Of a stretch of DNA of 11,098 nucleotides, positions 1 through 11,098 are shown one piece after another; position 1 is the first letter of the stretch; every line of letters starts with the position of its first letter. Where the stretch lies: UHGV virus genome UHGV-0320970; one strand, given 5' to 3'. Origin of the DNA: a virus. Under the pieces are notes generated by a model that saw nothing but the letters and a program-made list of their open reading frames with translations, had not been told where the DNA came from and did no database searches. The position numbers and the translations under genes were made by a program.

Positions 1-54
1 TGGGTACCTCCGTAAACTGACCCTGTAGAATCAGTTGTGCCAGTTGTTCATCTG

Positions 55-362
55 TTAGATTGAGTACGTGAGGAGCCCCTTCCGAAATGCACTTTCCTCA
101 GTAGCGGTTATATTTTCACGTTCATTTTTTGCGTATGCATATACGAAAAAGGCCCTTGTGCCGACGCGATAGAAAATGATTGTGCGATAACCGCCAGATT
201 TGCCGCCACCGACTCGTGGCAGACGTTGCTTGATAACGCCGTTACCCAGGTTTGCTGAGATAAGCCCGTTATCAGCCTGTTTAACAATTTCGCGCAGTGA
301 TTGGTCGGATATTTTGTTTTGCGTGCAAGTCGCTCAAACCAGGCGTTTTTAAAAATGCGCAT
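55..362 (-). pseudogene. RelE/ParE-superfamily (HigB-like) type II toxin, disrupted by a single-nucleotide frameshift in an A-run
   Basis: Minus-strand ATG at 360-362 gives MRIFKNAWFERLARK; after the A-run (plus coords ~312-320) the reading continues in another frame as ISDQSLREIVKQADNGLISANLGNGVIKQRLPRVGGGKSGGYRTIIFYRVGTRAFFVYAYAKNERENI... to TAA (55-57). The GKSGGYR ... FFxYAxAKNE pattern is typical of this toxin family. No single frame spans the gene; the track ORF 108..425 is the wrong-frame continuation. Confidence 0.5.
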
Positions 363-384
363 TTTTTGTTCCGTTATTAATGTA

Positions 385-399
385 TAACACATAGTGTTA
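385..399. promoter_or_regulatory. Perfect 6-3-6 inverted repeat TAACAC-ATA-GTGTTA just upstream of the toxin start; candidate operator
   Basis: Palindrome read directly from the sequence, 23 bp upstream of the minus-strand toxin ATG. TA operons are commonly autoregulated at such palindromes. Confidence 0.3.
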
Positions 400-428
400 C
401 ATTGCGTAGGGATCTGCAATGCCATCAG

Positions 429-459
429 TTTGACAACGTCGCGTGTTCGGGGCTATATT
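429..459 (+). promoter_or_regulatory. Candidate sigma70 promoter (TTGACA, ~19 bp spacer, TATATT) facing the nin-type operon
   Basis: Consensus -35 hexamer at 429-434 and -10-like hexamer at 454-459; the spacer is longer than optimal. Motif match only. Confidence 0.2.
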
Positions 460-704
460 CCTCACGCGCCAGCAAAACCTGGCGTCGGGATTAGCACCCC
501 GGATATCGAAACGGTGCATAACCGCGCTGGCGGTTTTTTTATGCGCTAAGCACAGTCACATTCGCGATTTATGGCGGGCTGTGTGGGGGAGCCGAAAGGC
601 TCGCCGGATGTTTCGACCGGTAGTGCTAACCCCGCACAGTTCGCCACCACGATGATTAGCACCTGACGGTGGCGAGGTAAAAATTATCGAAACGCGAGGT
701 CATT

Positions 705-1370
705 ATGGCTGTTCAAATTTCTGTCGAAAACCTTTCCCCTGTTACCTATAACCAGATCCCCGTAATTACTACTGAACTGTTGGCTCACCTTTACGGAACA
801 AAAATCAAAAACATTTCTGATAACTTTCTGAACAACACGACGCGATTCATGCCCGGAAAGCATTACTTTAAAATTGAAAAAAACGAATTACGCGAGTTTA
901 AGAACAGACCCGAAACAATCGGGTTAGTTGGTAAAAATGCCCGCTCCCTCATCCTCTGGACAGAACGCGGCGCAGCCCGTCACGCAAAAATGCTCGAAAC
1001 CGATCGGGCGTGGGAGGTATTCGAAAAACTGGAAGACTGCTATTTCAGCCAGGGAAAAACAGCACCAACCGAACAGCAGCCGCAGATTCAGCCACAATTC
1101 ACAGCCGAAGAAATCATCCTCCTTTGCTACATGCAGCTCTGGATGGAAAAAGCCCAGGACCTCAGCAAACACCTGTATCCCATTATGAAAGAGCTGAACT
1201 CCTCATACACGAACAAGCTGTATGACATTGCGTTTGAGACCATCTACATGGTGACGAAGAACAGAGACGCGCTACTAAGGGAGGTAACACGTCTCGACAT
1301 GTCAAGTTCCGTTATCCAGCGGGCCATGCCAATGCTGAAAAGCCTGCGGGCAAGACAATTTGAATTCTGA
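705..1370 (+). CDS. Phage antirepressor/regulatory-like protein (ORF6N / KilA-N / Roi-like N-terminal DNA-binding domain), 221 aa
   Basis: Long ORF with SD GAGGT 5 nt upstream of the ATG. The N-terminal ~110 aa (VITTELLAHLYGTKIKNISDNFLNN...KNELREF) resembles the N-domain of phage antirepressor-type proteins. It sits immediately upstream of ninB, as in lambdoid nin regions. Family assignment is from recall. Confidence 0.75.
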   Translation: MAVQISVENLSPVTYNQIPVITTELLAHLYGTKIKNISDNFLNNTTRFMPGKHYFKIEKNELREFKNRPETIGLVGKNARSLILWTERGAARHAKMLETDRAWEVFEKLEDCYFSQGKTAPTEQQPQIQPQFTAEEIILLCYMQLWMEKAQDLSKHLYPIMKELNSSYTNKLYDIAFETIYMVTKNRDALLREVTRLDMSSSVIQRAMPMLKSLRARQFEF

Positions 1371-1375
1371 AACTA

Positions 1376-1397
1376 AAGGAGCTTCGGCTCCTTTTTT
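1376..1397 (+). terminator. Intrinsic terminator (AAGGAGC-TTCG-GCTCCTT followed by a T-run), tR2-like position upstream of ninB
   Basis: 7-bp GC-containing stem, 4-nt loop and T6 tail, starting 6 nt after the stop codon of the preceding gene. Confidence 0.6.
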
Positions 1398-1424
1398 GTT
1401 GGGAAAATCCAGTGAGAGGGAATA

Positions 1425-1835
1425 ATGAACCAGACTATCTTCCTCCGAAGTAAACAGCAGCAACAATTCGCCATTAACGCCATCCTTGCAACAACTCTCG
1501 ATAAAGACAAACCCGTTACGATCCGCATCACCGATTACAAGCGGAATCTCGATCAAAATGCCAAATTTCACGCGATGGTCGCTGATATCTCCCGACAGGT
1601 TCAGTGGTGCGGCAGATGGCTAAAACCAGAACAGTGGAAAGTTTTGTTAATCAGCGGTCATGCCGTGGCTACAAAACAGGAAGCTGATGTTTTGCCAGGT
1701 CTTGAAGGTGAATACGTCAATATCCGCGAAAGCAGTGCGCAGATGAGCGTGAAGCGTATGGCAAGCCTGATTGAGTACACAACTTCCTGGGCTGTGGAGC
1801 AGGGTGTCAGATTTACCGACAGGAGGTATGAATGA
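1425..1835 (+). CDS. ninB: NinB-like recombination protein (136 aa)
   Basis: Translation ...[38 protein letters not shown]... aligns by eye with lambda NinB (...RNRSLDQNRKLWACLGDVSRQVEWHGRWL...). SD GAGGG upstream; the stop overlaps the next start. Confidence 0.9.
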
Positions 1836-2023
1836 GACGACAGCGACGAAGCATTACCGATATAGTCTGTGAAAACTGCAATTACCTTCCAACGAAACGC
1901 TCCCGAAATAAACCCAGGCCAATCCCCAACGAATCTGATGTAAAAACCTTCAATTATACGTCTCACCTGTGGGATGTCCGGTGGCTCAGACGTCGTGCAA
2001 GATTTAATAGTCACTCCGGATAG
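1832..2023 (+). CDS. ninE: NinE-like protein (63 aa)
   Basis: [56 protein letters not shown] matches the lambdoid NinE family. The start overlaps the ninB stop (ATGA), the canonical gene order. Confidence 0.85.
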
Positions 2024-2043
2024 TTCAATGTACGAGGAATAAG

Positions 2044-2337
2044 ATGATGGCAAACCTACGCAAAGAAGCGCGTGGCAGAGAATGTCAGGTACGGATTTAC
2101 GGCGTATGCAATGGCAATCCTGAAACTACAGTTTTGGCGCATTACCGAATAGCTGGAATTTGCGGAACGGGAATGAAGCCAGATGACCTGTTGGCTGCAT
2201 GGGCCTGTAGTGACTGCCATAATGAAATCGATCGCCGTACTCGCATTCTCGACAACAACGACGCCAGACTTTACCACCTGGAAGGCGTGATCAGGACGCA
2301 GGCGATATTGCTGAAGGAGGGGAAGATTAAGTCATGA
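2044..2337 (+). CDS. ybcO: YbcO-like DUF1364 protein (Cys/His-rich putative nuclease), 97 aa
   Basis: ARGRECQVRIYGVCNGNPETTVLAH...CSDCHNEIDRR pattern matches the DLP12 YbcO family. Tandem ATGs at 2044 and 2047; the stop overlaps the rusA start. Confidence 0.8.
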   Translation: MMANLRKEARGRECQVRIYGVCNGNPETTVLAHYRIAGICGTGMKPDDLLAAWACSDCHNEIDRRTRILDNNDARLYHLEGVIRTQAILLKEGKIKS

Positions 2338-2696
2338 ATGAATATGAGTTTGTGCTTCCCTGGCCGCCGACGGTGAATACCTACTGGCGAAGACGGGGAA
2401 GCCAGTACTACATCAGCGATAAAGTCCAGAAATACCGAAAAGACGTACAGCAAATCATCCGGCAACTCAGATTAGACATTTTCACTAAATCACGACTTCG
2501 CATCACAATTATTGCTGAACCACCAGACTCCCGCCGTCGCGACCTCGATAACATCCTGAAAGGTTTACTCGACTCTCTTATCCACGCCGGATTTGCGGAA
2601 GACGACGAGCAATTCGATGACATTCGCGTAATTCGCGGCGTGAAAGTGCCTGGCGGTAGAGTGGGGATAAAAATCACCGAACTGGAGAACATTTGA
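2334..2696 (+). CDS. rusA: RusA Holliday-junction resolvase (120 aa)
   Basis: MNEYEFVLPWPPTVNTYW...RRRDLDNILKGLLDSL...DDEQFDDIRV closely parallels E. coli RusA, including the acidic catalytic region. Start overlaps the ybcO stop (ATGA). Confidence 0.92.
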   Translation: MNEYEFVLPWPPTVNTYWRRRGSQYYISDKVQKYRKDVQQIIRQLRLDIFTKSRLRITIIAEPPDSRRRDLDNILKGLLDSLIHAGFAEDDEQFDDIRVIRGVKVPGGRVGIKITELENI

Positions 2697-2890
2697 TGAA
2701 TGCTAAAATTCAAACGATACCTGAATTACTGATCTGCACCAGGGGAAATCAGACAGAAGTCGCCAGAATACTGAACTGCAATCGTGCTACAGTCAGAAAA
2801 TACATTGATGATAAAGATGCGAAAAAGCACGCCGTCGTCAATGGCGTCCTTATGGTTCATCGCGGATGGGGTAAAGATACTGATGCGTGA
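2696..2890 (+). CDS. ninH: NinH-like protein (64 aa)
   Basis: ...[52 protein letters not shown] resembles lambda NinH (HTH-like). The ATG at 2696 overlaps the rusA stop; the track start at 2693 is a TTG three nt upstream. Confidence 0.85.
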
Positions 2891-3263
2891 TATCCGGCAG
2901 GTTCTTGAGCGCTGGGGGGCATGGGCGGTAAATAACTATGAGGATGTTACATGGTCGCCCATTGCTGCCGGATTTAAGGGACTGATCCCCGAAAAAGTAA
3001 AATCACGTCCACAGTGCTGTGACGATGATGCGATGGTGATATGCGGGTGCATAGCCCGCCTTTACCGGAACAATCGCGATCTGCATGACTTGCTGGTTGA
3101 TTACTACGTGTTGGGGGAGACGTTCATGGCGCTGGCACGTAAGCATGGATGCTCTGATGGAACTATCGGTAAAAAATTACAGAAAGCGGAGGGCGTGGTT
3201 GAAGGGATGTTAATGTTACTTGGTGTCAGACTGGAAATGGACCGATATGCGCAACGCCTCTGA
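2883..3263 (+). CDS. Q: Late-gene antiterminator Q, short phage-82 / QuuD-like type (126 aa)
   Basis: The track ORF starts at 2784, but that portion overlaps ninH out of frame. The ATG at 2883 overlaps the ninH stop (ATGCGTGA) and gives [24 protein letters not shown]...[12 protein letters not shown]...[10 protein letters not shown], which matches short Q antiterminators. Last gene of the nin operon, as expected. Confidence 0.85.
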
Positions 3264-3302
3264 CAGGAGGCGTTTGCCGTTCACTATGTGAAGTGTGTCA
3301 AT

Positions 3303-3332
3303 TTGTGAGCGTTATGCTGTTTACTTTATAGT
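3303..3332 (+). promoter_or_regulatory. Candidate late promoter pR' / qut region (TTGTGA, 18 bp, TATAGT)
   Basis: Sits in the 131-bp gap directly downstream of Q, where lambdoid phages carry pR' and the Q-utilisation site. Hexamer match only; the exact promoter is not certain. Confidence 0.3.
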
Positions 3333-3394
3333 ACAGGGACGTAAGAGTTATCTACCTGTTAATAACATATATACAACAATGAACAGGGGGCAAA

Positions 3395-3988
3395 ATGGAC
3401 ATTGAAGATTTTCTGGAGGCGGAAGACAATGATCTGTCTCTGTGGAATGATGATATTTTAAGCATTGACTGGTTCGTTATCCTCAAAGAGCTTTTGAAAT
3501 ACCAGAACAGGTTAAAGTTAAACTATTCAGAATTACTTCTGCTGGCTAATTTTGTTTCATTTCACCAGGACGTAGATTCGCAAACATTACCATCAATATC
3601 TCTTTTTGCCACCAGAATGCGTGCATCTCGTGCCATTATAGAAGAAGGCTTTCAACGCCTGGAGGAGAAAGGGATGTTGCAGAAGATAAGTTATGCTCAA
3701 ATCGGTCATGATTATGATTTGCGGAACGTTTATGACATCAAGCCATTAATTCGTAAGTTAATTGAGGTGCTGAAAACCGAGTATGATAAAAAGCACACTT
3801 GCCCCCTCTGCGGCAAAATAGCTGTCTCTGATGAGGAAATTGAGAAAAAATTCGGATTCAGAATTTGCGGGAATAAGAAAAGGCCGCAAAGCTGGTGCCG
3901 TTCATGCAGAAGCACGAAACAACGCAGACTGAATTCATCGCTAATTGGCAAAAAAAAGCCCCGAAAATCTCCGCCCGAGGTGGTGTGA
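3395..3988 (+). CDS. Moron-like hypothetical protein, 197 aa: acidic N-terminus, winged-helix-like core, C-terminal zinc-ribbon-like motif and basic tail
   Basis: Strong SD AGGGGG 6 nt before the ATG. Visibly more AT-rich than the nin genes. Core ...RASRAIIEEGFQRLEEKGMLQKI... resembles a winged-helix recognition region. C-terminus has CPLCG ... CRSCR and a Lys/Arg-rich tail. I recognise no family. Confidence 0.7.
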   Translation: MDIEDFLEAEDNDLSLWNDDILSIDWFVILKELLKYQNRLKLNYSELLLLANFVSFHQDVDSQTLPSISLFATRMRASRAIIEEGFQRLEEKGMLQKISYAQIGHDYDLRNVYDIKPLIRKLIEVLKTEYDKKHTCPLCGKIAVSDEEIEKKFGFRICGNKKRPQSWCRSCRSTKQRRLNSSLIGKKKPRKSPPEVV

Positions 3989-4101
3989 AGCGTCGCGGAA
4001 CCCCGGATTCCACTCACGATTGAACGAGGTGCTAAAAAGTATTTTACGTACGTAAAAATCTGCATATCATGATAAGAGTGGTTACATTGCCACGCTGCTT
4101 A

Positions 4102-4126
4102 ACCCGCCGATGCGCGGGTTTTTTTG
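4102..4126 (+). terminator. Intrinsic terminator (ACCCGC-CGATGC-GCGGGT followed by a T-run)
   Basis: GC-rich 6-bp stem followed by T7, about 110 nt downstream of the moron gene stop. Candidate tR'-equivalent or moron terminator. Confidence 0.6.
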
Positions 4127-4305
4127 TACCCAGAATCCTGTGAGCTATACGGAAAGTACACAGAAAGGAAGGTACGACCGCAATTAATAACAAAATCTTA
4201 AAAATCTCATATGGCACTATTAGTTTTCTAAATATTGTATATTTTAAGTATTGCAGGATAACCCTGTAACGAAGTTTGCGTAACAGCATTTTGCTCTACG
4301 AGTTT

Positions 4306-4336
4306 GCCAGCCTCCCCTGGTGGCTGGCTTTTTTTG
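4306..4336 (+). terminator. Intrinsic terminator (GCCAGCC-TCCCCTGGT-GGCTGGC followed by a T-run)
   Basis: Perfect 7-bp GC-rich stem, 9-nt loop and T7 tail. Confidence 0.65.
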
Positions 4337-4421
4337 TATCCGTTCAACGGGAATGTTACATACCTCACAATTAAGTCAGTTGAATGTTGTCTGCCCGGAT
4401 GAGAATTTGTTAGAAAAAACT

Positions 4422-4450
4422 GCATGGTGAATCCCCCTGAGCGGAGGGGC
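4422..4450. repeat. Outer inverted repeat P1 (29 bp), left copy
   Basis: GCATGGTGAATCCCCCTGAGCGGAGGGGC; its reverse complement recurs at 4817-4845 with one mismatch. Confidence 0.85.
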
Positions 4451-4520
4451 GACTGGTGACGGTATAATCTCTGATTATCAAAACGAGAATGACGCGGGTT
4501 TAGTGGCACCGGGCTGAACT

Positions 4521-4575
4521 CACCGGGAGGCACCCGGCACCATGCAATGGCACATAGCGCCACTCTCCAGCCCCT
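4521..4575. repeat. Repeat unit 'a' (55 bp), left arm of a perfect inverted repeat
   Basis: CACCGGGAGGCACCCGGCACCATGCAATGGCACATAGCGCCACTCTCCAGCCCCT; exact reverse complement at 4708-4762 (55/55). Confidence 0.95.
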
Positions 4576-4707
4576 CTCCGGAGGGGCTTTCTTATGGACA
4601 AAAAAGCCCGCGCTGGGAGACGCGGGCGGCAAGGAATAAACAATAAAACGTGAAGTAATATTTCAGCTGGCGAATAATACCCCATAGTAATCACTCTGCG
4701 CAACTGC
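4576..4707. repeat. Spacer S (132 bp) enclosed by the 'a' inverted repeat; contains convergent terminator-like hairpins
   Basis: Plus-strand hairpin GCCCCTC-TCCG-GAGGGGC followed by TTTCTT at the a/S boundary. Minus-strand hairpin GCCCGCG...CGCGGGC followed by a T-run (plus coords ~4600-4627). A near-identical copy of S lies at 10917-11049. Confidence 0.85.
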
Positions 4708-4762
4708 AGGGGCTGGAGAGTGGCGCTATGTGCCATTGCATGGTGCCGGGTGCCTCCCGGTG
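4708..4762. repeat. Repeat unit a' (inverted copy of 'a')
   Basis: Exact reverse complement of 4521-4575. Confidence 0.95.
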
Positions 4763-4816
4763 AATTCAGTACCAGCACCTGAATCCGCGATTATCCCATA
4801 TACCTACTCGCTGATT

Positions 4817-4845
4817 GCCCCTCCGCACAGGGGGATTCACCATGC
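4817..4845. repeat. Outer inverted repeat P1', right copy
   Basis: Reverse complement of 4422-4450 with a single mismatch. Confidence 0.85.
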
Positions 4846-4891
4846 CAGTTTCTTTTAACAAACTCCCCGCAAACCAGACAACAGTCAACCG

Positions 4892-4946
4892 CCGGCACCA
4901 TGCAATGGCACATAGCGCCACTCTCCAGCCCCTCTCCGGAGGGGCT
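4892..4946. repeat. Third copy of the 'a' unit, direct orientation
   Basis: 55/55 identical to 4534-4588 (CCGGCACCATGCAATGGCACATAGCGCCACTCTCCAGCCCCTCTCCGGAGGGGCT); flanks differ. Confidence 0.9.
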
Positions 4947-4981
4947 GTTTATATTGATTTTGTCAGATGTGAGTAAACTCC

Positions 4982-5317
4982 TTATGGACTTTGTTGTTTT
5001 AGCCCATAAGGACATATTTGCAGAGTGCAACGGTTATTAAAGCATTCATTCAATACGTTATCTGTATTTGTAGGGCATTCCTGGCTGTTTTTGATTAAAT
5101 TCCAGAATGTTTTATTGAATGGTACTACGTTGTAAATGGTTACAGGTAGCACTTTGTTATTGAGCATGATGCCTGTGTGAGTCAGTGTAAATATACTTTC
5201 AGGAGGTAAGAAAGCATCCGATTGATACCAGATTATTAATTTTATTTTACTCCATATGACTGAAAAAGATATTCCGCATGATGGCTGGATAACTGTATCA
5301 ATCACAATCCACTTCAT
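4982..5317 (-). CDS. Hypothetical protein (111 aa) in an AT-rich island, orientation opposite to neighbours
   Basis: ORF with plausible SD AAGGAA 6 nt upstream of the ATG on the minus strand. Very AT-rich and similar to nothing I recognise; could be a spurious ORF. Confidence 0.3.
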
Positions 5318-5577
5318 TTAGTTTCCTTGTTTATGCCTTGCTGGTGATGTTCTGAAAAGTATAAATGATATTTTTGATTGTAAACCATAGAGCAGAATTA
5401 TTTTTCTGATGTTGTTTATTGTTTATTTAAATGCAGGGTGGTTTATATCTCGTCTTGTAGTTTATCCATGCATATCTGCTTGATGATGAGGTTTTTATTT
5501 AAGGTATGGTTTTGTGTTTTTTCTGTATTACATGTCAGGTATTTTAAAGAATCATTTTTCAGATGGTGGAAAGAACC

Positions 5578-7521
5578 ATGGCATTTAAACACTATGATGT
5601 TGTCAGGGCGGCGTCGCCGTCAGATCTTGCGGAAAAGCTGACACATAAACTGAAAGAGGGCTGGCAGCCGTTTGGCAGTCCTGTGGCTATCACGCCTTAT
5701 ACACTGATGCAGGCCATTGCCGCAGAGGGTGATGTGACCACGCCTGTGGTTGTGCCCGACACAGGGGCTGGTGGCTCTCCGGGAGTGGCTACCACTGAAC
5801 CGGAGTATTACTACGTTATTCCCCTGGCCGGGCAGTCGAACGGTATGGCCTATGGTGAGGGGCTTCCTCTGCCGGAGACCTATGATCGCCCTGACTCCCG
5901 TATTAAGCAGCTGGCCCGTCGCAGCACTGTGACGCCGGGTGGTGATACCTGTGCATACAATGACGTTATTCCGGCAGACCACTGTCTGCATGATGTTCAG
6001 GACATGAGCGCACTTAACCATCCTCATGCAGACCTGAGTAAGGGCCAGTACGGGACTGTCGGTCAGGGGCTGCATATTGCCAAAAAACTGCTGCCTTATA
6101 TCCCGCAGAATGCCGGGATTCTTCTGGTGCCCTGTTGCCGTGGCGGGTCTGGTTTAACCGTGGGTAATGACGGCACGTTCAGCGAAACGTCTGGTGCATC
6201 GGCAAATTCAGCCCGCTGGGGAGTGGGTAAACCGCTGTATCAGGATTTTCTCTTCCGTACAAAAGCGGCGCTGTCGAAGAACCCGAAAAACAGGCTTCTG
6301 GCCGTGGTATGGATGCAGGGGGAAAATGATCTTGCGGACGGCAGTCAGCAGCACAGCGGCCTGTTTACCACTATGGTGCAGCAGTTCAGGGCTGATATGG
6401 CTGCATATTCTGCACAGTGTGTTGGCGGAAGTGCTGGCTCGGTGCCGTGGATTTGTGGTGACACCACGTATTACTGGAAGAATCTTAACGCCGATAAATA
6501 TGAGGCGGTATATGGCGGTTACAAGGGCAGGGAAGCACAGAATATTTTCTTTGTACCGTTCCTGACGGATGAGAATGGACAGAGCACGCCAACGAATGCT
6601 CCGGCGGAAGACCCGGATATTGTGGCTGTCGGGTATTACGGTGCAGCATCCCGAACCCAGGGCAGTTTTGTTTCGACACAGCGTGACAGCCATTTCAGCT
6701 CATGGGCACGCAGGGGCGTCATTTCAGACCGTCTGGCCTCAGCTATTATGCTCCATGCAGGGCGCACGGCTGAATTGATGCGCGGGCAGACCGTGACACC
6801 ACCGGATGAGAAGCCGTCACCTGATACACCATCAAAACCGTCCACGCCACCCGCAGACACCACGACGATGAGTACGCTATTTGCTTACCGGGCATCTGAG
6901 TCTGAAGGACGGTTGACACCACAGGGTTGGGCTGCTGGAGGTGGCAAGGCTCAAATCGTGGATGATGCCGGAGCCAGCGGGGGTAAGGCAATGAAACTGA
7001 CCAAGGAAACAGGAAGAGCCCCCTGGTACCTTGAGCATGATGCTGGTAATGGTGCGGACCTGCTGGGTAAAGGTGGTCTTGTCAGTTGTCGTTTTAAACT
7101 CGATGGCGCGCTTACGGCTAATCAGTACGCACTGGCGCTGTACTGGCCGGTTTCTTCATTGCCTCAGGGTGTCACACTGGAAGGTAATGCCGGTAACAAT
7201 CTGCTGGCGTCGTTTTACGTACAGAGCGATGCCACAGACCTCAACGTGATGTACCACAAGGGTAACGCTGACCAGAACACGAAGCTGGGGTCATTCGGCG
7301 CATTTGACAACGAATGGCATACGCTGGGTTTCCGTTTTGCCGGTAATAACAGCATTCAGGTGACGCCGGTGATTGATGGTCAGGATGGTGCACCGTTCAT
7401 GCTGTCGCAGTCTCCGGTAGGTTCTTTTGCGGCAGACAAATTACGTGTAACGGATATCACAAAAGCGGCGACGTATACGGTGCTGATTGAAAGTATAACA
7501 GTGGAAGTGAATAACCCGTAA
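5578..7521 (+). CDS. nanS-p: Prophage NanS-p-type sialate O-acetylesterase (N-terminal DUF1737-like domain, SGNH/SASA esterase core, C-terminal putative carbohydrate-binding domain), 647 aa
   Basis: The paralogue starts MAFKHYDVV, so the ATG at 5578 is preferred over the track start at 5563. Core contains YYYVIPLAGQSNGMAYGEG (GQSN nucleophile motif) and CGDTTYYW. Located in the post-Q slot where lambdoid and Stx prophages carry nanS-p. Confidence 0.88.
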   Translation: MAFKHYDVVRAASPSDLAEKLTHKLKEGWQPFGSPVAITPYTLMQAIAAEGDVTTPVVVPDTGAGGSPGVATTEPEYYYVIPLAGQSNGMAYGEGLPLPETYDRPDSRIKQLARRSTVTPGGDTCAYNDVIPADHCLHDVQDMSALNHPHADLSKGQYGTVGQGLHIAKKLLPYIPQNAGILLVPCCRGGSGLTVGNDGTFSETSGASANSARWGVGKPLYQDFLFRTKAALSKNPKNRLLAVVWMQGENDLADGSQQHSGLFTTMVQQFRADMAAYSAQCVGGSAGSVPWICGDTTYYWKNLNADKYEAVYGGYKGREAQNIFFVPFLTDENGQSTPTNAPAEDPDIVAVGYYGAASRTQGSFVSTQRDSHFSSWARRGVISDRLASAIMLHAGRTAELMRGQTVTPPDEKPSPDTPSKPSTPPADTTTMSTLFAYRASESEGRLTPQGWAAGGGKAQIVDDAGASGGKAMKLTKETGRAPWYLEHDAGNGADLLGKGGLVSCRFKLDGALTANQYALALYWPVSSLPQGVTLEGNAGNNLLASFYVQSDATDLNVMYHKGNADQNTKLGSFGAFDNEWHTLGFRFAGNNSIQVTPVIDGQDGAPFMLSQSPVGSFAADKLRVTDITKAATYTVLIESITVEVNNP

Positions 7522-7669
7522 GCAGGAAAAAAAGACCGCCGTGGCAGGGAAAACAAGGAGCCAGAACCGGCGGCAGAAGTCGCTACATCCTTAGCAAAAA
7601 TATGCTGAGCAAAAAATGCAGGAGTTTTTTACTGGCAGGCATTGACCATGTCAATAATGGAGATGAATA

Positions 7670-7852
7670 ATGACATTTTTACAGCTGATTATGTTGTATT
7701 TCTGTACAGCAGTTTGTGTGCTGTATCTTCTTTCTGGTGGGTACAGAGTCGTGAGAGATTTCTGGCGCAGACAGATTGACAAAAGGGCCGCTGAGAAAAT
7801 CAGTGCCAGTCAGTCAGCCGGAACAAAACCCGAAGAGCCTCTCATTCCGTAG
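7670..7852 (+). CDS. Small single-pass membrane protein (60 aa), paralogue of 8424..8606
   Basis: MTFLQLIMLYFCTAVCVLYLLSGGY is a hydrophobic helix, followed by a charged tail. SD GGAG upstream. A diverged copy is conserved on the opposite arm. Confidence 0.6.
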   Translation: MTFLQLIMLYFCTAVCVLYLLSGGYRVVRDFWRRQIDKRAAEKISASQSAGTKPEEPLIP

Positions 7853-7889
7853 CAACTTTCTTAACAACACCTTTCAACGAGAAAATACC

Positions 7890-8414
7890 ATGTCAGAAAT
7901 AAAATCGCTGGTCACTGCTGAAGCAGTGAAGGAAGTCCTGCGCTCTGAAGAAGTCAGAAGCGCACTGAAACAGCAACTTCGGCAGAACCTTGAGGCGCGT
8001 CTTGATGCAGAAGTGGATGCCATTCTGGATGAACTGCTGGGCGCACCGACTGTTCCGGAGCCGGAAGGCATTGCGTACCCCGTCTCCCGCAATCCGGAAG
8101 CTCACAACAATATAAAGACCACCGGCACACACCGATGGTCCCTTGCGCATGCTTACATCATCATGTCGCTGTCAGGTGTAGGTTCACCGCCATCTGAAGC
8201 ACTCCCGTCACCCGCGATACCTTCCGGCTCAGGAACCGCTGCTACGCCCAGCAGCTCATCCAGAATGGCATCCACTTCTGCATCAAGACGCGACTCAAGA
8301 TTCTGGCGAAGTTTCTGTTTCAGTGCGCTCCGGACCTCTTCAGAGCGCAGGACTTCCTTCACTGCCTCTGCAGTGACCAGGGATGTGATTTCTGACATGG
8401 GATTTTCTCGCTGA
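7890..8414 (+). CDS. 81-aa-family acidic helical protein, plus-arm copy; homology ends near 8078 and the ORF then reads through the palindrome centre antisense to the other copy (possibly truncated or fused)
   Basis: MSEIKSLVTAEAVKEVLRSEEVRSALKQQLRQNLEARLDAEVDAILDELLG...PEPEGIA matches the minus-arm copy for 63 aa, then diverges with no nearby stop. Confidence 0.45.
   Translation: MSEIKSLVTAEAVKEVLRSEEVRSALKQQLRQNLEARLDAEVDAILDELLGAPTVPEPEGIAYPVSRNPEAHNNIKTTGTHRWSLAHAYIIMSLSGVGSPPSEALPSPAIPSGSGTAATPSSSSRMASTSASRRDSRFWRSFCFSALRTSSERRTSFTASAVTRDVISDMGFSR
8153..8398 (-). CDS. 81-aa acidic helical protein, minus-arm copy (apparently intact)
   Basis: MSEITSLVTAEAVKEVLRSEEVRSALKQKLRQNLESRLDAEVDAILDELLG...PEPEGIAGDGSASDGGEPTPDSDMMM with its own stop at 8153-8155. 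Confidence 0.6.
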   Translation of the reverse strand: MSEITSLVTAEAVKEVLRSEEVRSALKQKLRQNLESRLDAEVDAILDELLGVAAVPEPEGIAGDGSASDGGEPTPDSDMMM

Positions 8415-8423
8415 AAGGGGTTG

Positions 8424-8606
8424 TTAAGGAGTAACGGGTTCTTCGGGTTTGCTTCCGGCTGACTGACTGGCGCTGATTTTCTCAGCGGCCCTTTTATCAA
8501 TCTGCCTGCACCAGAAATCGCGCACAGCCCTGTACCCACCCGAAAGAAGATACAGCACACAGACCGCCGTACAGAAGTACAGCATCACCTGATGAATAAA
8601 TGTCAT
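8424..8606 (-). CDS. Small single-pass membrane protein (60 aa), paralogue of 7670..7852
   Basis: MTFIHQVMLYFCTAVCVLYLLSGGYRAVRDFWCRQIDKRAAEKISASQSAGSKPEEPVTP; diverged from the plus-arm copy at several positions, so not a recent exact duplicate. Confidence 0.6.
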   Translation of the reverse strand: MTFIHQVMLYFCTAVCVLYLLSGGYRAVRDFWCRQIDKRAAEKISASQSAGSKPEEPVTP

Positions 8607-8745
8607 AATTTCTTACCGTTATGGTTGACAATGAGAATTGTTTTCATTTAAAAAACCAATGTACGAAAGCATCTTTTCTTTACATTCTCCATTGGGATTA
8701 CCTCCGCCAGCTTCCATTCCTGCCGCTGGCGGCTTTTTTTAGCAA

Positions 8746-10656
8746 TTATGCGGCTGCTCCAGCTTTGTTTGCTTTAACTTCCACCGTATCAATAAGTACA
8801 GGGTAGGTTTCTGCACTACCTGTAATATCCGTAATGACAAACCTGTTGAGTCCATTAGCAGTATTGGCCCATTTCACCAGGTCAAACGCCTGTCCATCCA
8901 CACCATCGAGCACCGGAGTAACATTAATGCTGTTACTGCCCTTAAATTTAAATGCAAGCGTATGCCAGTCATGGTCGAATGCGCCAAACGTGCCAAGTTC
9001 TTTTTGTTGATTAACTGTATGATGGTATGCAACATTAATACTGGCTTTATCTGTCTGGACAAAGAAAGAACTCAGATGGCCTTCACCACCCTCACCCGGC
9101 CATTCCGCTATTCGCCAGTACAAACCAAAGGCATACTTGTTTCTGGTTGTCTCAAGATTGACGTTTTCGGGGATTTTAAACCGGACAGCAATTTCCCCGC
9201 CTTTTTCCAGTAAAAGTTTTGCCTTGTCTGCAGCAATATCACAGTACATTGACCAGGATTTCGCGCTGTTATTTTTCTCAATTCGCAGAGCTTTATTGCC
9301 GCTGTCATCAACCAGTGTGCGTCTGCCATACATACCGTCCCAGCCATAAGGTTTCAGCTGATTGTCTGTAGCTTTTTTGGCATCGTAAAAAATTACAGAC
9401 TCTGAGGTGGTAACCGGCCTGTCTGGAACAACCACCCCGGCAGTACCATTAACAAACGCAGAAGACTTACCCGCGCAGCTCAGAATCGCCGTTGCCAGAC
9501 GGTCGGAAATAATCCCACGGCGAGCCCATGAACTGAAATGGCTCGCCCTGTCCTGTGACGTCCAGGTGGCTGAGCTGTCACGCCATTTCGAACCGTAATA
9601 ACCGATACCCGGAATGTCCGGGTCTTCTTCCGGTTTGTTCGTCGGCACATTCACCCCGTTCTCATCGGTCATGAACGGTACGAAATGGATATTCTTTTCC
9701 GTTTTATTTTTATAGCTGCCGTACACCGTCTGGTACGTGGATTCGTTCTTCTGCTTCCAGAAATACGTCGTGTCCCCGCATATCCAGGGAACACCGCCAG
9801 CAGAGCCACCGACGCACTGGCCTGCCATATCCGCCAGGTCTGCACGGAATTTATCAACCAGCGCACCAAACTGTGCGGCATGATTTGCCGGCGTACCGCC
9901 AAAATCAAATTCCCCCTGCATCCACACCACGGCAAACAGCACATTTTTCGGGTTCTTCTCCAGTGCCGCTTTTGTTCGACCGATAAGGTCCTTATACAGC
10001 GGCTTGTCCACACCCCAGCGGGTTGAATTCTCCGAGGCACCACTCGCGTCACTGTATGTGCCATCAGCTCCGGTGGTGAACGCTGAACCACCACGACAGC
10101 ACGGAACCAGCAGAATGCCCGCATTCGCCGGTATAAACGGCAGCAGTTTTTTGGCGATATGCAGCCCCTGCCCCACGGTTCCGTACTGCCCCTTTGACAG
10201 GTCCGCTTTCGGATGGTTAAGACGGCTCATGTCCTGCACATCATGCAGACAATGGTCCGCCGGAATGATGTCGTTATATTTGCATGCTGCACCGCCCGGT
10301 GTCACCGTACTGCGACGCGCTAACTGTTTAATACGTGGATCAGGGCTGTCGAATGTATCCGGTAATGGCAGTCCCTCACCGTATGACATACCATTGGACT
10401 GACCAGCAAGCGCGATCACATAGTAATATTCTGGCGCAACAGAAGGCGCTGAGGTCGTCGGACGGTTGCCTGGCTCCTCTGGTGATGAGATGCTCCCCTC
10501 ACTCACAACTGGCTGGATGAACTCCGCACCATAACCAGCTGTCGAAATCAGCGCACTACCATAAGGCTGCCACCCTTCCTTCAGTTTTTGAGTTATTCGT
10601 TTCGCAAGGTCTGACGGCGACGCCGCCCTGACAACATCATAGTGTTTAAATGCCAT
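8746..10656 (-). CDS. nanS-p: Second, diverged NanS-p-type sialate O-acetylesterase (636 aa)
   Basis: MAFKHYDVVRAASPSDLA..., YYYVIALAGQSNGMSYGEG, CGDTTYFW. Strong SD GGGAGG 5 nt upstream on the minus strand. Same three-domain layout as 5578..7521 but with many substitutions, especially in the linker and C-terminal domain. Confidence 0.9.
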   Translation of the reverse strand: MAFKHYDVVRAASPSDLAKRITQKLKEGWQPYGSALISTAGYGAEFIQPVVSEGSISSPEEPGNRPTTSAPSVAPEYYYVIALAGQSNGMSYGEGLPLPDTFDSPDPRIKQLARRSTVTPGGAACKYNDIIPADHCLHDVQDMSRLNHPKADLSKGQYGTVGQGLHIAKKLLPFIPANAGILLVPCCRGGSAFTTGADGTYSDASGASENSTRWGVDKPLYKDLIGRTKAALEKNPKNVLFAVVWMQGEFDFGGTPANHAAQFGALVDKFRADLADMAGQCVGGSAGGVPWICGDTTYFWKQKNESTYQTVYGSYKNKTEKNIHFVPFMTDENGVNVPTNKPEEDPDIPGIGYYGSKWRDSSATWTSQDRASHFSSWARRGIISDRLATAILSCAGKSSAFVNGTAGVVVPDRPVTTSESVIFYDAKKATDNQLKPYGWDGMYGRRTLVDDSGNKALRIEKNNSAKSWSMYCDIAADKAKLLLEKGGEIAVRFKIPENVNLETTRNKYAFGLYWRIAEWPGEGGEGHLSSFFVQTDKASINVAYHHTVNQQKELGTFGAFDHDWHTLAFKFKGSNSINVTPVLDGVDGQAFDLVKWANTANGLNRFVITDITGSAETYPVLIDTVEVKANKAGAAA

Positions 10657-10720
10657 GAATCCTCCCGGCCGGGATAATATTGTGAGTAAAATAAGGAGCG
10701 GGCTGAAGTCCGGAAGTTAC

Positions 10721-10838
10721 AGGACAATGGCAGAAGGGAGACTACAGCCCGCAATTCGAAAAAGGTCGCGCAGTTGCGCAGAGTGATTACTATGGGGTAT
10801 TATTCGCCAGCTGAAATATTACTTCACGTTTTATTGTT
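10721..10838. repeat. Left arm of the terminal palindrome (118 bp)
   Basis: Reverse complement of 10981-11098, checked by eye over both ends. Its inner ~70 bp is the reverse complement of the right part of spacer S. Confidence 0.85.
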
Positions 10839-10916
10839 GATTCAGGTGCTGGTACTGAATTCACCGGGAGGCACCCGGCACCATGCAATGGCACATAGCG
10901 CCACTCTCCAGCCCCT
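10839..10916. repeat. 78-bp block identical to the reverse complement of 4708-4785 (flank R0 plus unit 'a')
   Basis: GATTCAGGTGCTGGTACTGAATT followed by the 55-bp 'a' unit; exact match to the reverse complement of the locus-1 a'+flank. Confidence 0.9.
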
Positions 10917-11049
10917 CTCCGGAGGGGCTTTCTTGTGGGCAAAAAAAGCCCGCGCTGGGAGACGCGGGCGGCAAGGAATAAACAATAAAACGTGAAGTAA
11001 TATTTCAGCTGGCGAATAATACCCCATAGTAATCACTCTGCGCAACTGC
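10917..11049. repeat. Second copy of spacer S, same plus-strand orientation as 4576-4707
   Basis: Near-identical to 4576-4707 apart from an extra A in the A-run and two substitutions (CTTATGGACA vs CTTGTGGGCA). Confidence 0.9.
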
Positions 11050-11098
11050 GCGACCTTTTTCGAATTGCGGGCTGTAGTCTCCCTTCTGCCATTGTCCT
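10981..11098. repeat. Right arm of the terminal palindrome, running to the window edge
   Basis: Reverse complement of 10721-10838; the palindrome may continue beyond the window. Confidence 0.85.

Follow-up and report, generated by a model that had tools for sequence, protein, structure and literature searches.

Two convergent nanS-p genes in one viral contig match alleles of two different prophages and probably owe their adjacency to a one-off event or an artefact

The window analysed here, the whole 11,098-nucleotide stretch of UHGV virus genome UHGV-0320970, carries two NanS-p sialate O-acetylesterase genes. Our results make it likely that these are ordinary alleles of two prophages and that the convergent pair is a by-product of a one-off rearrangement or of a chimeric library or assembly template, not a selected locus. 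Each copy is ∼99.9% identical to a different prophage's gene, yet only 54% identical to the copy beside it; the DNA identity to separate prophages, together with exact protein matches in databases (164 database blocks for copy 1 and 413 for copy 2), argues that the two did not diverge in place. A sequence-only reading of this DNA had described paralogues encoded back to back and sub-specialised for different substrates or binding partners. The genes are indeed an adjacent pair, but they are convergent (tail to tail), with two DUF1378 and two DUF826 genes in the 1.2 kb between their 3′ ends. The sub-specialisation drawn from the two-copy locus is unsupported, because the pair is neither conserved nor duplicated and is a unique inverted join, abrupt, non-homologous and gene-truncating, of modules ∼99.9% identical to stand-alone prophages. 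That reading had itself named the juxtaposition of copies from two known separate prophages as grounds for abandoning it, and this is in substance what we found.

Both genes are full length. Copy 1 (5578–7521, plus strand, 647 aa) encodes a DUF1737 domain (3–50), a SASA/SGNH esterase core and a DUF6645 lectin-like C-terminal domain, and copy 2 (8746–10656, minus strand, 636 aa) encodes DUF1737, SASA and DUF6645 with divergent linkers and C-terminal domain. For copy 1 the methionine at 5578 is preferred, since RefSeq starts the identical gene of record L001 there; the mechanical open reading frame begins five codons upstream, at 5563. The proteins share 354 of 656 aligned positions (54%, BLASTP E = 0), and Pfam finds three domains in each, including DUF1737 (PF08410; E = 1.9e-15 for copy 1 and 4.9e-18 for copy 2) and DUF6645 (PF20350; E = 7e-69 and 1.6e-28, respectively). 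The divergence noted earlier in the linkers and C-terminus is confirmed by alignment, identity being 59% in DUF1737, 19% in linker 1, 71% in the esterase core, 15% in linker 2 and 38% in the C-terminal domain. So is the shared N-terminus with its SGNH motifs: GQSNG and CGDTTY[YF]W are found in both copies, GQSN, CCRGGS and WMQGE start at residues 85, 186 and 245 in both, and SHFSS starts at residue 371 in copy 1 and 372 in copy 2.

The esterase core of both copies aligns end to end with chromosomal NanS (YjhS, 3PT5; E = 2e-113 for copy 1 and 3.5e-118 for copy 2), a non-prophage gene product that, unlike them, lacks the DUF1737 capsid-binding and C-terminal lectin-like domains. The catalytic residues of NanS are Ser19 and His301 (PMC9063846), and the Gln-Ser of GQSN and the His of SHFSS correspond to its Gln18/Ser19/His301 site, which has no catalytic Asp. 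Loss of catalytic residues from one copy had been suggested as a possible counter-finding; both copies retain the Ser of GQSN and the His of R-x-S-H. Their SGNH blocks are of the NanS-like variants, as in prophage NanS-p proteins, although block IV reads RDSH in copy 1, in contrast to the reported RSSH or RASH. The architecture of DUF1737, SASA and a jelly-roll C-terminal domain is that of 933W L0105/z1466 and phi24B vb_24B_21 (gp84), and both lengths fall inside the range reported for NanS-p (636–657 aa). The DUF1737 domain of phi24B gp84 is capsid-binding and anchors the enzyme (bioRxiv preprint 10.64898/2026.04.10.717836). The C-terminal domain of copy 1 is very close to the crystallised NanS-p domain 6YP6 (E = 1.4e-98), whereas that of copy 2 falls into a divergent group (E = 4.9e-42 to 6YP6). 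Alignments place all four proposed aromatic sugar-binding residues (PMC10462455) in copy 1 and Y, Y, F and N in copy 2, where two of the four are changed (F for Y540 and N for F611). Judged by domains and motifs, both proteins are three-domain NanS-p enzymes with their catalytic residues intact, and they are probably ordinary alleles.

In relatives, NanS-p proteins take 9-O-acetyl groups off Neu5,9Ac2 and the glycans of mucin, and such esterase activity has been reported for EDL933 and O104:H4 alleles (PMC8065619). Whether alleles differ in substrate or binding has already been asked at the genome level (PMC10462455). Seven heterogeneous, active NanS-p occur in EDL933 and five in O104:H4 C227-11phi-cu (PMC8065619). 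In those multi-allele sets each nanS-p lies in its own prophage, whereas the window holds two alleles 1.2 kb apart and convergent. Enzyme biology gains little from the window: the same two proteins, residue for residue, are widespread elsewhere, and the question of allele specificity has already been put.

The window is a mosaic of two prophage types, here called X and Y. Positions 1–4707 are the early and Q region of the X type (NMBU-W12E19, FORC_069 and O104:H4), 229–4707 being 99.93% identical, in forward orientation, to the X prophage of NMBU-W12E19. Copy 1 and its flanks (4892–8075) match a prophage of E. coli 23CRST047 at 99.94% identity, and copy 2 and its flanks (8076–10843) are 99.9% identical, inverted, to the same NMBU-W12E19 prophage and that of FORC_069; the copy 2 region shares 99.5% DNA identity with an O104:H4 prophage. 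The native order in Y is an iraM-like gene, nanS-p, DUF1378, DUF826 and holin, and in X it is Q, a DnaD_N-like ORF, the late leader, nanS-p, DUF1378, DUF826 and holin. NMBU-W12E19 itself holds alleles near copy 1 (region ∼99.5%) and copy 2 (region ∼99.9%) in two separate prophages that lie ∼1.7 Mb from each other and are oppositely oriented. The window runs from X up to its late leader (1–4707) through a Y fragment (4708–8075) into the X nanS-p module in inverted orientation (8076–10838), and all four joins are non-homologous and strand-inverting. In the explanation we propose, it would have arisen either in a single recent event that involved several breakpoints and two co-resident prophages, or from a template that became chimeric during library preparation or assembly.

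Four strand-inverting junctions (4707|4708, 4891|4892, 8075|8076 and 10838|10839) with microhomology of about 0–2 nt delimit the segments, and are bordered by inverted duplications of 69–74, 78 and 42 nt. At 4891|4892 and at 10838|10839 the sequence makes a local U-turn of ∼140 nt within a single repeat element. Of the features expected of a template-switch or fold-back chimera or rearrangement, strand inversion and minimal microhomology are present at all four junctions and the U-turns at two. At the central junction, 8075|8076, Y in forward orientation is joined to the reverse complement of X without microhomology; the X side stops at the A of the holin ATG, and the DUF826 gene of the copy 1 module is truncated. 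That gene (7890–8075, plus strand) is cut after codon 62, ending in PEPEGIA, and its reading frame continues to 8414, antisense to the DUF826 gene of the copy 2 module; its native form has 89 aa (L001 9035–9304). The remaining genes between the esterases are the DUF1378 gene of the copy 1 module (7670–7852, plus strand; PF07125, E = 1e-37), which also follows nanS-p in the native prophage, and, for the copy 2 module, an intact DUF826 gene (8153–8398, minus strand, 81 aa) and a DUF1378 gene (8424–8606, minus strand). No holin or lysis cassette follows either nanS-p in the window, where just the A of the holin ATG is left. Four blunt junctions are unusual for natural recombination.

Two simpler accounts of the mosaic were rejected. 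Homologous inversion between the prophages predicts collinear hybrids, not a tail-to-tail join, and the junctions lack homology. For a single misoriented assembly unit with k-mer overlaps, flipping 4708–10838 does bring X and the late leader back into their native adjacency (inverted overlaps of 69–74 and 78 nt), but two non-native junctions then remain, and the overlaps are incompatible with one k value.

We searched for the arrangement in 5,426 complete E. coli genomes, GTDB representatives, IMG/VR, JGI metagenomes, INPHARED and PLSDB, using exact junction searches for GTDB representatives, IMG/VR and JGI metagenomes and BLAST for complete E. coli genomes, phages and plasmids. In no collection was any of the junctions tried there found, no record spanned a junction by BLAST in the complete E. 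coli genomes, phages and plasmids, and none of the four junction-spanning ORFs that were looked up is on record, while the native junction, searched for as a positive control, returned 20 contigs. Among the other genomes and contigs searched none carried the pair, which gives no sign of paralogues paired in situ. Context was read in the 24 longest contigs for each of three queries (copy 1, copy 2 and the DnaD_N ORF) and in 20 IMG/VR contigs. Consistent with the earlier statement that lambdoid prophages carry one nanS-p each, in every other context read each prophage had a single nanS-p, and the genes ran Q, nanS-p, DUF1378, DUF826 and holin. The late-operon position, downstream of Q and leader and upstream of the holin and lysis genes, is common to all relatives; the window differs in having no lysis cassette and in the inversion of copy 2 relative to Q. 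A rare lineage with the same arrangement could exist, for example among draft E. coli assemblies.

How the modules came together has two main answers, to neither of which we would give an even chance. The juxtaposition may exist in no cell, having been made from a strain with both prophages by chimeric templates or reads (strand-switch or fold-back) or by a misoriented segment, a reading that falls only a little short of even. All four junctions flip strand with next to no microhomology, the window ends exactly where an inverted-repeat arm ends, and the junctions are absent from the collections while a related strain carries both prophages separately. Local U-turns within one repeat are a pattern of template-switch chimeras, which the two ∼140-nt U-turns resemble. 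The 99.9–100% identity of the segments to native copies points the same way, implying zero divergence since the event. Against this, an assembler consensus is drawn from many reads, and it would be unusual for a single contig to take up four chimeric junctions in the space of 6 kb; the sizes of the inverted duplications do not fit a single k-mer length; and repeat-driven mis-assembly alone could hardly make four blunt junctions, as no shared k-mers span them. Alternatively, the join could be physically real, a recent replication-based serial template switch or break repair between inversely oriented co-resident prophages in which lysis genes were lost and two esterases kept; this we hold possible, if somewhat doubtful. 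The mosaic map and junction structure are consistent with it, a close relative carries both prophage types in opposite orientation, truncated or IS-disrupted remnants of the X module occur naturally (L021 and L020), and assembler repeat collapse cannot yield blunt junctions. On the other hand, the arrangement is in no other genome or contig searched, four breakpoints at once are rare, signs of age or inheritance are absent, and the position of one break, right on the A of the holin ATG, looks coincidental. In its most specific form, in which a natural series of strand switches made four inverted junctions within 6.1 kb and left a lysis-less remnant with two esterases, one of them still Q-controlled, the proposal is unlikely. 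Three of the four junctions lie inside or beside the STnc100 late-promoter/terminator repeat common to lambdoid prophages.

An evolved dual-esterase locus, its paralogues adapted to distinct O-acetylated sialoglycans or to distinct binding partners, is by comparison highly improbable. In its favour, both enzymes are intact, their lectin-like domains have diverged, and copy 2 has changed aromatic residues; but comparable allelic divergence is general between prophages, the genes and exact proteins occur separately elsewhere, a gene is truncated at the central junction, and copy 2 would be cut off from its promoter. That the arrangement is conserved nowhere among the sequences searched largely refutes this idea. 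The wider caution is that adjacent 'paralogues' in a prophage-rich E. coli region do not amount to functional linkage unless the arrangement is recurrent and read-supported. A real join would exemplify strand-switch rearrangement at several breakpoints around the late-leader repeat that lambdoid prophages share, documenting a complex replication-type rearrangement between prophages and possibly a step to esterase domestication without lysis.

The by-product explanation also bears on the upstream contexts, in which the earlier reading had seen a difference between the copies. The AT-rich island before copy 1 (GC 0.31–0.34 at 5001–5600), the Shine-Dalgarno sequence GGAGG that precedes copy 2 and the terminal inverted repeat (10721–10843 and 10976–11098; 99% complementary with a 132-nt spacer) are all real; the contexts are simply those native to the two donor prophages. 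The island contains an iraM/PmrD-like gene (4982–5317, minus strand), which also adjoins copy 1 in its native setting, prophage Y. ARAGORN detected no tRNA genes upstream of the esterases, and the repeats there are Rfam STnc100 copies. One, the STnc100-type element of prophage X (4394–4599, plus strand; RF02076, 165 bits), is read as a late-promoter leader with a terminator hairpin at 4569–4588 (terminator scan). The other, the inverted prophage Y element (4708–4891, minus strand), is the reverse complement of L001 5893–6078 at 100% identity and is flanked by the novel junctions 4707|4708 and 4891|4892. The antiterminator Q gene of prophage X (2883–3263, plus strand) matches L013 6951–7331; copy 1 lies downstream of it in the same orientation, while copy 2, the one natively paired with this Q, has been turned round relative to it. 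From this geometry, Q-modified late transcription from the X leader could still reach copy 1. A third late-leader segment (10839–11098, plus strand), Y-type at first (100% to L001 6001–6091) and then X-like, has its left edge at 10838|10839, and its right part forms one arm of the terminal inverted repeat. Because this leader is directed rightwards, away from copy 2, copy 2 would have lost its promoter, and it would be subject to antisense read-through from copy 1.

The window holds two long open reading frames of the SASA esterase family, 5563/5578–7521 (+) (copy 1) and 8746–10656 (−) (copy 2), which share DUF1737, SASA and DUF6645 by Pfam and match both the solved NanS core, 3PT5 (E = 2e-113 for copy 1 and 3.5e-118 for copy 2), and the known structure of the NanS-p C-terminal domain, 6YP6 (E = 1.4e-98 and 4.9e-42). 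The identification of two NanS-p enzymes in the sequence-only reading is borne out by these matches, as is the divergence it noted in the linkers and the C-terminal domain: full-length identity is 54% (BLASTP), with 59% in DUF1737, 19% in linker 1, 71% in the core, 15% in linker 2 and 38% in the C-terminal domain. The motifs GQSN, CCRGGS, WMQGE and GDTTY start at the same residues in both copies (85, 186, 245 and 294, respectively), and SHFSS starts at residues 371 and 372 in the two. Catalysis by NanS relies on Ser19 and His301 without a catalytic Asp (PMC9063846). Equivalent residues are present in both proteins and, because Ser and His are kept in each, the idea that one copy might lack its catalytic residues falls away. 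For vb_24B_21, four sugar-binding aromatics have been proposed (Y510, Y515, Y540 and F611; PMC10462455). In the alignments to the solved structures, copy 1 keeps all four, and the corresponding residues of copy 2 are Y, Y, F and N.

At the sequence level both proteins thus show every feature looked for in a NanS-p; only the operon context departs, owing to the rearrangement described below. Given the conserved active site, copy 1 and copy 2 should each be a competent sialate 9-O-acetylesterase. NanS-p alleles from EDL933 and from O104:H4 have been shown to be active, and single genomes with multiple heterogeneous active alleles have been described (PMC8065619). In the phi24B homologue the DUF1737 domain decorates the capsid and the protein is processed (2026 bioRxiv preprint, 10.64898/2026.04.10.717836). 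NanS-p enzymes of this kind and their multi-allelic sets are already known, and whether alleles differ in specificity is an explicit question in the literature, independent of this locus.

The two genes are convergent. Copy 1 is followed by a DUF1378 gene (7670–7852, +) and a DUF826 gene (7890 onward, +), and copy 2 by a DUF1378 gene (8424–8606, −) and a DUF826 gene (8153–8398, −); this layout makes the locus one large, imperfect inverted repeat. Compared by BLAST with three reference loci, the window splits into five segments, A–E. Segment A (1–4707) runs forward and is of the type of prophage X, 99.93–100% identical to E. coli NMBU-W12E19 with the exception of an IS66 element found in that strain alone, and carries genes for a RelE-like toxin, ORF6N, NinB, NinE, DUF1364, RusA, NinH, Q and a DnaD_N-like ORF, followed by an STnc100 element. 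Segment B (4708–4891) corresponds, in reverse complement, to the STnc100 element of a second type, prophage Y (100% identical to 5893–6078 of its reference locus, L001), and segment C (4892–8075) is prophage Y forward (L001 6037–9220, 99.94% identical), with an iraM-like gene, nanS-p copy 1, DUF1378 and a DUF826 gene cut after codon 62. Segment D (8076–10838) is prophage X in reverse complement, from 11469 down to 8707 of the NMBU-W12E19 locus L013 (99.86% identical), and comprises the A of the holin ATG, DUF826, DUF1378, nanS-p copy 2 with a 113-nt leader, and 69 nt of the native spacer between the late leader and this gene. Segment E (10839–11098) runs forward, its first 91 nt being 100% Y-type and the remainder X-like, and heads toward an expected nanS-p start ∼65 nt beyond the window end. 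On this five-segment map, copy 2 is the native esterase of the prophage whose Q gene fills the left of the window, turned around, and copy 1 is an import from the second prophage type.

Three features pointed out earlier were all found: an AT-rich island upstream of copy 1 (GC ∼0.32), a Shine-Dalgarno sequence and a terminal inverted repeat. The island encodes a 111-aa protein (4982–5317, −), named anti-adapter IraM in RefSeq and placed in the PmrD family by precomputed matches; a Pfam scan gave no match for it at E ≤ 0.01. Its gene is a constant neighbour of the copy-1 allele in all contexts read.

Four junctions, 4707/4708, 4891/4892, 8075/8076 and 10838/10839, separate the segments, with microhomology of ∼0–2 nt and a switch of strand at every one. 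The B/C and D/E junctions are local U-turns of ∼140 nt inside the late-leader repeat, and inverted duplications of 42, 69–74 and 78 nt were made at the U-turn junctions. At the central junction (8075/8076), the DUF826 gene of the copy-1 module, ending ...GGCATTGCG, is fused directly to TACCCCGTC..., a stretch complementary to the ribosome-binding region of the holin gene and the A of its ATG. The fusion leaves a chimeric ORF of 174 aa (7890–8414). In the copy-2 module, a 13-pair terminator-like hairpin at 8114–8143 (−) separates the stop codon of DUF826 from the start of the holin gene; it lies within the native prophage X match and is now ∼40 nt from this junction.

Three of the four breakpoints fall in or beside copies of STnc100, an Rfam 'sRNA' family with matches at 4394–4599 (+), 4698–4874 (−) and 10751–10940 (+). 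At the end of each copy checked stand the hairpin AGCCCCTCTCCGGAGGGGCT and, after it, a T-rich tail. Because the element lies downstream of Q, we think that it is the late-promoter leader of the prophage together with its terminator, and not an sRNA gene in its own right. A segment of ∼74 nt occurs three times, at 4634–4707, 10770–10843 (reverse complement) and 10976–11049, and all three copies have an A where every aligned native X-type locus has a G (CAATAAAACG versus CAATGAAACG), which suggests that they derive from one template.

The exact copy 1 and copy 2 proteins are on record in 164 and 413 database blocks, respectively. All contexts read, 24 contigs apiece for copy 1, copy 2 and the DnaD_N-like ORF, have one esterase per prophage and the gene order Q, nanS-p, DUF1378, DUF826, holin; lysozyme adjoins the holin or comes one small gene later. 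In BLAST searches of 5,426 complete E. coli genomes, coverage of every junction-spanning query stayed below 80% in each genome, and no junction-spanning record was found among INPHARED phages and PLSDB plasmids. The exact junction strings were likewise not found in GTDB species representatives, IMG/VR or JGI metagenome contigs, nor in the reference and relative loci examined. As a control, the native junction string was searched for and matched 20 IMG/VR contigs; in all of these, A leads directly into reverse-complemented D, as in a normal prophage. The sequence-only reading was right about the genes; the specialisation it drew from their linkage is not supported.

The chance that the arrangement is an artefact rather than a physical structure is roughly even. 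Its uniqueness among the sequences searched favours an artefact, as do the U-turn geometry of the four inverting junctions, the lack of divergence in the segments since the event, and a window that stops exactly where the inverted-repeat arm ends. However, repeat collapse cannot produce blunt junctions, and four chimeric joins are rare in one consensus assembly. Segment A has its closest relative in NMBU-W12E19, which carries the two alleles in different prophages, ∼1.7 Mb from each other and oppositely oriented; such a strain could be the source of both parts of the window. The best-supported account is that two ordinary NanS-p alleles were joined either in one recent event between two prophages, with several breakpoints and inversion of strands, or by a chimeric template. 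If the rearrangement is physical, the gain is modest.

Copy 1 still lies downstream of Q and the prophage X late leader and, judging from the geometry, antiterminated late transcription that crosses the inverted Y leader and the iraM-like gene could reach it. What copy 2 retains is its short leader and part of the upstream segment, with the late leader in E, at the right, pointing away, and transcription past copy 1 would run antisense to copy 2. Lysis genes follow neither copy within the window.

Natural decay of the copy-2 module is seen in two other genomes. In L021 (9427–9822) the esterase ends after the DUF1737 domain (131 aa) and adjoins a molybdopterin oxidoreductase and other non-phage genes, and in L020 (11045–12651) the gene is split by an IS (rve transposase), leaving a DUF6645 fragment. 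The IS66 element of NMBU-W12E19 (L013 1622–4264) sits at the point matching window 229–236, where two BLAST pieces overlap by 8 nt in what looks like a target-site duplication; the window itself has no IS there. The DnaD_N-like ORF (197 aa, 3395–3988, +), between Q and the late leader, has a DnaD_N match and a weak HTH_36 match, an odd site for a replication-type domain, and its exact protein is on record in 565 database blocks. At 453–651 (+), Rfam gathering-score matches to c4-a1b1 targets, isrK Hfq-binding RNA and C4 antisense RNA are found immediately 5′ of an ORF6N/P22_AR_C antirepressor-type gene (705–1370), and we read the RNAs and this gene as a P1/P7-style antisense-RNA immunity module in this lambdoid prophage.
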